Below, one piece after another: positions 7,637 to 8,323 of a stretch of DNA of 13,134 nt. The translations under genes were made by a program, and so were the position numbers. The stretch's first letter is position 1, and each line of letters starts with the position of its first letter. A model generated the notes under the pieces. The model saw only the letters and a program-made list of their open reading frames with translations, was not told where the DNA came from and did no database searches. Source of the stretch: a virus (Duplodnaviria > Heunggongvirae > Uroviricota > Caudoviricetes); the IMG/VR virus record IMGVR_UViG_2681813271_000010; one strand, given 5' to 3'.

Positions 7637-8323
7637 TCACTCCTTCTCTTCTTTACCGTAGTGGAGTTGACCAATTTTGATAAGAGGGCGTCCCTGAGAT
7701 TTGCGGTGTAGATTGGTATCGCGCAGAGAATACACACAGCCACAATATTCCTGCTGATAGAATTTTTCGCGCTTGCTGATTTCAATCATACGGGACGAGC
7801 CGCCCTGCTTGCGCCAGTTATAATCCCAGTACACCATGCCCGGATAATGCGCGACGGCTCGCCGCCCACAGTCGTTAACCTGCTGCATATTTTTCCAGCG
7901 TGAAATGCCCAGTGAACTGCTGATCACACTGAAACCATTTTCAGCGGCGTACAGCGCTGTCCGCTCAAAACGCATGTCAAAACACATGGTGCAACGGATC
8001 CCTCGTTCGGGCTCCCATTCCATTCCTTTGGCTCGTTCAAACCAGTTGTCTGTGTCGTAATCAGCATCAATAAACGGCACGCCGTGTTGTTCAGCAAAGC
8101 GAATATTCTCATCCTTACGAATTAAATACTCTTTCTGAGGATGAATGTTCGGGTTGTAGAAAAAGATGGTGTAGTCGATTCCCGAGGCCTGAAGCGCCTC
8201 CATCACCTCACCGGAACATGGAGCACAGCAAGAGTGCAGTAGTAGTTTGTTTGCCCCGTTTGGGAGCTCCAATTTGGGCCGTTTGAAATCAGCAACTGTC
8301 ATAAATATGTTTATTGGGGTCAT
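7637..8323 (-). CDS. QueH-like protein (DUF208 family, putative epoxyqueuosine reductase-type Fe-S enzyme)
   Basis: 228-aa frame with [14 protein letters not shown] near the N-terminus, then YNPNIHP...[12 protein letters not shown] and a C-terminal YCGCVYS motif. This Cys pattern is what I recall for QueH/DUF208. No clear Shine-Dalgarno before the ATG at 8323; the Met at 8302 is an alternative start. Confidence 0.6.

Follow-up and report, generated by a model that had tools for sequence, protein, structure and literature searches.

A queH gene carried by a lambdoid prophage probably forms a functional cassette that makes the last step of queuosine (Q) formation on host tRNA independent of the supply of vitamin B12, a reading to which we give a probability of roughly 80%. 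The gene lies in a stretch of 13,134 nucleotides, here called the window, from a virus record of the class Caudoviricetes (IMG/VR record IMGVR_UViG_2681813271_000010), and it encodes an ordinary member of the known and structurally solved QueH family (PF02677, DUF208, IPR003828). The family, its predicted reaction and the annotation of this exact protein are already known, while a queH that is phage-borne, widespread in E. coli/Shigella and equipped with its own conserved promoter-like element has been little described. The gene, the cassette that contains it and the neighbouring elements are arranged in the window as follows.

7637..8302, minus strand: queH coding sequence in the preferred model of 221 aa, starting at Met8 and ending with the stop codon TGA at 7637-7639, based on Pfam, the PGAP start and the Erwinia N-terminus
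8303..8323, minus strand: seven extra codons of the 228-aa model, whose first in-frame ATG is at 8323; probably 5' untranslated leader
7630..8373, minus strand: mosaic queH cassette of ~740 bp, the open reading frame plus ~64 nt of native upstream DNA, delimited by homology breakpoints
8337..8345, minus strand: candidate extended -10 TGcTACACT with its TG at 8345-8344 and its hexamer at 8342-8337; the Met8 ATG lies 34 nt downstream
7254..7466, minus strand: mok/hok toxin open reading frame, a neighbour and not part of queH (Pfam HOK_GEF, E 9.8e-23; annotated hokD in relatives)
7404..7579, minus strand: hok/sok RNA element, a neighbour (Rfam RF01794 sok, 117 bits against a gathering threshold of 59)
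1329-1639, minus strand: four tRNA genes, Gly(UCC), Thr(UGU), Arg(UCU) and a CAU tRNA, between the Q-like and lysis genes

The open reading frame list contains an uninterrupted frame of 228 aa at 7637..8323 on the minus strand, exactly where the initial annotation had described a 228-residue protein with CCAPC and additional cysteines. Residues 30-39 hold the motif, with CCAPC itself at residues 32-36, and the further cysteines are found at 111, 114, 194 and 196. The true start of queH is probably the second in-frame ATG, Met8 at 8302, which would give a product of 221 aa. This start is chosen because PGAP selects it both in the corresponding locus of the complete genome FDAARGOS_944 (L001) and in E. 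coli 042, because the Erwinia homologue, which reads MTNPAFKRAKLELP from its Met1, can be aligned by eye to the window protein from Met8 to residue 21, and because three of the eight amino acid differences between the window allele and that of Escherichia phage HannyBb are clustered in the first seven codons. Inspection of the DNA revealed no obvious Shine-Dalgarno sequence at either candidate start codon.

The assignment to QueH (DUF208), for which the initial annotation had proposed a profile search, is borne out by the Pfam family PF02677, whose profile is matched over its full length (positions 1-174 of 175) with an E of 1.9e-65 and a score of 220.6 bits, the cut-off being 23.5. A scan of the NCBIfam HMM library returned nothing for the window queH product, although PGAP names it QueH. 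The only solved relatives detected by sequence are structures of T. maritima QueH (TmQueH), namely 7LC5, 7LC7 and 9DEU together with the mutants 9D86 (C9S) and 9DCO (D13N), and 7LC5 is matched over residues 27-203 at about 30% identity with an E of ~5e-22. Cysteines 32, 33, 111, 114, 194 and 196 align with C9, C10, C87, C90, C169 and C171 of TmQueH, while C36 aligns with Tm D13, so that the seven cysteines of the family-invariant set are kept in the window protein. These six Tm cysteines and position 13 are presumably the ligands of the [4Fe-4S] cluster and of the adjacent metal site, and Li et al. in 2021 reportedly established which TmQueH residue ligates which metal; all of the metal-ligand positions that the initial annotation had singled out for checking are present in the alignment. 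As judged from the alignments, cysteine at the position of Tm D13 is the norm of the QueH family, being found in 40 of 41 aligned members, with CCAPC in 103 and CCAPD in 3 of 113 motif-bearing representatives at 50% identity. The 41-sequence alignment had been pre-filtered for CC.P and a C-terminal C.C, so that only its other columns constitute independent evidence, and here the remaining invariant residues N59, R69, E106, R110 and K144 are kept in the window protein as well.

The predicted structure leads to the same family. An AF2 model of moderate quality (pLDDT 69.3, pTM 0.71), built on a shallow alignment and with a poorly modelled C-terminal Cys loop, gave as its top five Foldseek matches the TmQueH entries 7lc7, 7lc5, 9d86, 9dco and 9deu, at an E of 1e-9 and TM scores of 0.54-0.71, followed by TtuA, TilS and LarE, which are enzymes of the AANH superfamily. 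The predicted fold is therefore adenine-nucleotide-alpha-hydrolase-like, as in TmQueH, and the structural comparison recommended in the initial annotation finds the window protein matching solved QueH both by sequence and by modelled fold.

The prophage gene is a housekeeping-type Enterobacterales queH. Proteins named QueH from across Enterobacterales and beyond share 80-92% identity with the window protein, and where their neighbourhoods were examined the genes stand in ordinary chromosomal surroundings: between tmcA and purC in Providencia, between purL and a two-component sensor kinase gene in Erwinia, next to benE in Photorhabdus, next to LysR and acetyltransferase genes in a Citrobacter-like genome, and next to genes for a LysR-family regulator, alpha-acetolactate decarboxylase and a TPP enzyme in Enterobacter hormaechei. 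Among the 80 best species-representative loci, lambdoid neighbours occur only in Escherichia albertii and Shigella flexneri, where the gene is 99% identical. Synonymous sites are saturated against the Providencia, Erwinia, Photorhabdus and Citrobacter-like homologues (pS 0.76-0.90), and queH has the same GC content as its flanks, 48.6%. This rules out a recent capture from a sampled donor, and the capture of queH was thus not recent from any sampled lineage. On the E. hormaechei chromosome an open reading frame for a 234-aa tyrosine recombinase of the Phage_integrase family (L097, 6181-6885) is located directly upstream of queH, which hints that queH may be mobile outside lambdoid phages too.

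Phages are known to place 7-deazaguanines in their DNA (PMC6884629), and the initial annotation had raised the alternative that the enzyme acts on a phage nucleic acid, for example in a 7-deazaguanine or oQ-like DNA modification, and not on tRNA. For the present gene this appears very improbable and is left without support. No dpdA/tgt, queA, queC/D/E or folE is annotated in the complete FDAARGOS_944 prophage, from the integrase to ipaHb, or in the inspected part of HannyBb, which extends to the whole of the closest complete prophage the earlier remark that no DpdA/Tgt-like partner is visible in the window. Furthermore, the protein is 80-92% identical to the products of queH genes in chromosomal contexts, the nearby tRNAs are not Q substrates, and a 2019 survey of Q-pathway genes in viruses by Hutinet et al. 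found no homologues of QueA, QueG or QueH, including in DNA-modifying phages (PMC6884629). The far end of the FDAARGOS_944 prophage (L175, 14761-16587) carries the type III secretion effector gene ipaHb, which makes its nominal “E. coli” host appear Shigella-like, and the accessory loads of this prophage number at least three, these being ipaH, hok/sok and queH.

The four phage tRNA genes reported in the initial annotation are indeed present at 1329-1639, whereas the distance of ~6 kb that it gave between them and queH does not stand, being inflated by an insertion at 2548-5556; in the contiguous FDAARGOS_944 locus the distance is 2.6 kb. The CAU tRNA is called Met by ARAGORN and tRNA-Ile by PGAP in a relative, and related prophages differ in the composition of the array, some of them having Lys(UUU) or Arg(UCG). 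Taken over the window and 12 related loci, the tRNAs are Gly, Thr, Arg, Met/Ile and Lys, and never Asn, Asp, His or Tyr. A link between queH and the phage tRNA array was ruled out, as there is no Q-substrate tRNA in the window or in the 12 related loci. HannyBb has ~20 tiny open reading frames of 90-170 nt between its Q-like gene and its holin (L011, 3431-6192), a region in which ARAGORN finds no tRNA, and these look like over-annotation of a non-coding or repeat region.

The order of genes in the prophage runs from the replication module, with a DnaC/IstB-like ATPase and a DUF977/Ren-like gene, through queH to hok/sok, NinB-like, DUF1364 and Q-like genes, and then to the tRNAs and lysis genes, with queH and these prophage neighbours all in one orientation. 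The queH cassette sits where the replication module of lambdoid/Rac-like prophages meets the nin region, beside hok/sok; the hok toxin that the initial annotation had placed next to queH is recognised both by Pfam (HOK_GEF, 7254-7466) and by Rfam (sok, 7404-7579). A hok promoter-like site at 7615-7586 begins ~20 nt past the queH stop codon. PADLOC defence-system models gave no match for QueH or for two neighbours.

Comparison with related DNA defines the cassette closely. Nucleotide homology to the chromosomal queH of E. hormaechei covers 7630-8366, homology to most other queH-bearing prophages ends near 8373, ~50 nt upstream of the first ATG, and in Stx and other lambdoid phages that lack queH the shared sequence is confined to the hok side, reaching about 7600-7634. 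The cassette is a discrete insert with sharp boundaries at ~7630 and ~8373 that is absent from related phages. Inside it, upstream of queH, travels a position-conserved candidate extended -10 element, TGCTACACT. In 12 of 84 queH loci the motif TGCTA[A/C]A[A/C]T stands between -39 and -44 relative to the start codon, against a mean of 0.15 loci after shuffling, and the loci that bear it include chromosomes of Enterobacter, Scandinavium, Kluyvera and Erwinia with differing surrounding sequence. The TGcTACACT of the window is a candidate extended -10 promoter that may have moved with queH. The initial annotation had proposed that queH could be a moron, an idea that gains support from the tight boundaries of the cassette and from the conserved promoter-like element carried with the gene.

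Other regulatory elements were searched for around the cassette. A sigma-70 scan for the two-hexamer consensus gave no promoter directly upstream of queH and did not pick up the extended -10, and a scan for intrinsic terminators gave none downstream of queH or on either side. Rfam searches, of the window at the gathering threshold and of the surroundings of queH in L001 at E<=1, matched only sok, the tRNAs and sRNA-Xcc1, and found no preQ1 or cobalamin riboswitch upstream of queH. Exactly at the upstream mosaic joint of the cassette, at 8375-8400 on the minus strand (L001 14976-15003), lies a GC-rich hairpin, CCGCCC-GAAA-GGGCGG, which has one A-C mismatch in the window copy and is found only in the upstream flank of the L001/L096 type. 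It is not a canonical terminator because the hairpin is not followed by a T run.

The same arrangement bears on when, and for whom, the enzyme would be made. Since queH points the same way as the early-right operon, its transcription may be confined to induction, and the same enzyme could then serve the phage, with delayed-early rightward transcription raising Q/oQ for phage translation or against a host response, mainly after induction or infection and not as a lysogenic-conversion gene. This is compatible with the main explanation, and we regard it as possible though rather unlikely. The gene is placed among cro, the replication genes, the nin genes and Q and shares their orientation, with neither a strong consensus promoter ahead of it nor a terminator to either side; in addition, a 2026 preprint reports that Shewanella phage infection raises Q and lowers oQ through induction of queG, which makes the step dynamic in infection. 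Set against this are the position-conserved extended -10 that travels with the cassette and is common to chromosomal homologues, and the lack of any phage tRNA that is a Q substrate. An enrichment of NAU codons as a phage motive for Q was considered and is absent, the NAU fraction in phage genes being 0.50-0.54 compared with 0.61 in a small host sample.

Each of the 81 full-length queH copies in the loci retrieved for comparison is intact; among them are 19 alleles at the nucleotide level and 7 variants of the protein. Between the window allele and that of HannyBb there are 23 synonymous and 8 non-synonymous changes, giving a dN/dS of 0.08, and queH is maintained by purifying selection while phage-borne. 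It could be argued that the gene is a decaying passenger without current function, as it is redundant with a universal queG and as the prophage region in the window is rearranged and IS-ridden. The dN/dS of 0.08 between diverged prophage alleles and the 81 intact copies speak strongly against such decay, as do the conservation of all invariant residues and the presence of the gene in an isolated phage with a deposited complete genome, and we consider it scarcely credible.

The rearrangement of the window needs to be read with its assembly in mind. queH itself is on an N-free block, 5557-8425, that is 99.8% identical to the complete genome FDAARGOS_944. Elsewhere there are nine runs of N (637-662, 1807-1837, 2548-2558, 3393-3619, 5546-5556, 8426-8571, 8717-8727, 9520 and 12931-12955), three of which are exactly 11 N, with duplicated prophage segments on both sides; 2388-2547 and 5678-5837 match one and the same stretch of locus L096, and L001 12158-12438 is present twice. 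The window looks like a scaffolded or masked draft joining pieces of similar prophages, and its gene order outside 5557-8425 should not be trusted. The block at 2548-5556, of ~3 kb, is flanked by N runs, is scaffold-like and is absent from the closest complete prophage. The elements annotated in this part of the window are the following.

2559-3011: ORF6N-domain gene, antirepressor-like, within the 2548-5556 block
3040-3123, minus strand: sRNA-Xcc1 (Rfam, 77 bits against a gathering threshold of 53), a short way upstream of the ORF6N-domain gene
3620-3932: second antiterminator, of the classical Phage_antitermQ family and truncated by Ns, within the 2548-5556 block
4190-5536: intact IS4-family transposase (Nterm_IS4 and DDE_Tnp_1)

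On the other side of queH, 8346-8708 and 8736-9149 are two diverged (~95%) copies of a phrog_1621 gene labelled “unknown function,” and 9150-9305 and 9541-9963 are two diverged (~95%) copies of the C-terminal part of the DUF977/Ren-like gene, each pair standing in tandem across N gaps. These tandem copies may be either a real duplication or a scaffolding artefact.

The distribution of the gene in sequenced genomes is broad. The queH segment is present at >=80% coverage in 851 of 5426 complete E. coli genomes (~16%), where it is annotated “epoxyqueuosine reductase QueH,” and the exact window protein is a RefSeq MULTISPECIES entry named QueH that is recorded from at least 1000 contigs, Shigella sonnei Ss046 among them. 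The initial annotation had stated that Escherichia uses QueG for this step, and every one of the 5426 complete E. coli genomes does carry queG, the 851 with queH included. On the viral side, 188 IMG/VR contigs carry close relatives of the window queH. Escherichia phage HannyBb, which has been isolated and whose complete genome is deposited, has at the same position a queH with 96.5% amino acid identity that is annotated “hypothetical protein.” It is the only convincing carrier among deposited phage genomes, where unannotated faecal contigs and very large records resembling bacterial DNA were not counted as phage. The window protein belongs to the PHROGs family phrog_3217, which is labelled “unknown function” and whose profile begins at residue 41 and so misses CCAPC; this late start of the profile suggests that many phage gene calls begin at an internal Met and lose the motif. 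A literature search for QueH or epoxyqueuosine together with phage or prophage found no paper on phage-borne QueH.

Taken together, these data support both what the initial annotation saw and how it read it, each computational check that it proposed having come out in favour, and they lead us to the B12-independent reading given at the outset. QueH would act as a cobalamin-independent epoxyqueuosine reductase, with a [4Fe-4S] cluster and an adjacent iron site, and the prophage enzyme would convert oQ34 to Q34 in host tRNA-Asp, -Asn, -His and -Tyr. The host QueG depends on B12, and prophage QueH would duplicate its step without B12. E. coli and Shigella lack de novo synthesis of B12. As QueG requires B12, the prophage copy would thus free the last Q step from B12 supply. 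The earlier part of the Q pathway, in which tgt and queA provide the oQ substrate, is established for E. coli (pathway summary in PMC9508795), and a passage of PMC4646009 citing Frey 1988 describes the QueG step as cobalamin-dependent in E. coli and Salmonella. For S. aureus a redundant pair of QueG and QueH that rely on different cofactors has been reported, with QueH described as Fe-dependent (PMC13443448). Catalytic activity of the prophage protein on tRNA is suggested by its 80-92% identity to chromosomal queH products and by published genetics on other QueH proteins, comparative conservation of the extended -10 is consistent with expression of queH from its own promoter in lysogens, and we infer a putative benefit to the host under B12 limitation.

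As the bacteria make no B12 of their own and their sole chromosomal reductase is B12-dependent, prophage queH could create a strain-dependent Q/oQ status. With prophage queH in ~16% of complete E. coli genomes, strains could differ in Q versus oQ tRNA under B12 limitation, and this difference could affect translation and Q-linked stress phenotypes. A bolder extension, which we think unlikely, is that a temperate phage here manipulates the host epitranscriptome, with QueH raising Q/oQ of host tRNA either in a B12-poor lysogen, in settings such as the gut or, for Shigella, the inside of host cells, or during lytic growth. If this were true, the decoding of Asn, Asp, His and Tyr codons would be altered to the benefit of phage or lysogen, and queH would rank as the first auxiliary gene of a phage that belongs to the queuosine-tRNA pathway itself and not to deazaguanine modification of DNA. 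The identification of the gene also fills an annotation gap, as phrog_3217 is listed with unknown function and the 2019 survey was without viral QueH.

Placing the prophage enzyme beside known systems shows where it is familiar and where it departs from them. With QueG (YjeS), which is cobalamin- and [4Fe-4S]-dependent, it shares the predicted reaction, oQ34 to Q34 in tRNA, and both are present in every genome with prophage queH, but QueG needs B12 while QueH is described as Fe-dependent. The two are said by Zallot et al. (ACS Chem Biol, 2017) to be unrelated in sequence and fold, QueH being a non-orthologous replacement. In comparison with TmQueH (7LC5, 7LC7, 9DEU) there is the same full-length domain, six aligned cysteines and a predicted AANH-like fold; TmQueH has Asp at position 13, whereas the window protein, like most of the family, has the Cys of CCAPC, and the window gene is carried by a temperate phage and not fixed in a chromosome, in a host that already has QueG. 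The phage 7-deazaguanine (preQ0/G+) clusters, with DpdA and FolE/QueD/QueE/QueC, likewise borrow queuosine-pathway enzymes, but none of their signature genes is annotated in the queH prophage. In organisation there is a parallel with the lambdoid morons of the nin region, such as hok/sok: no terminator was found with the queH cassette and its expression in lysogens is predicted from sequence, and like these morons queH is a discrete mosaic insert with a promoter-like element.
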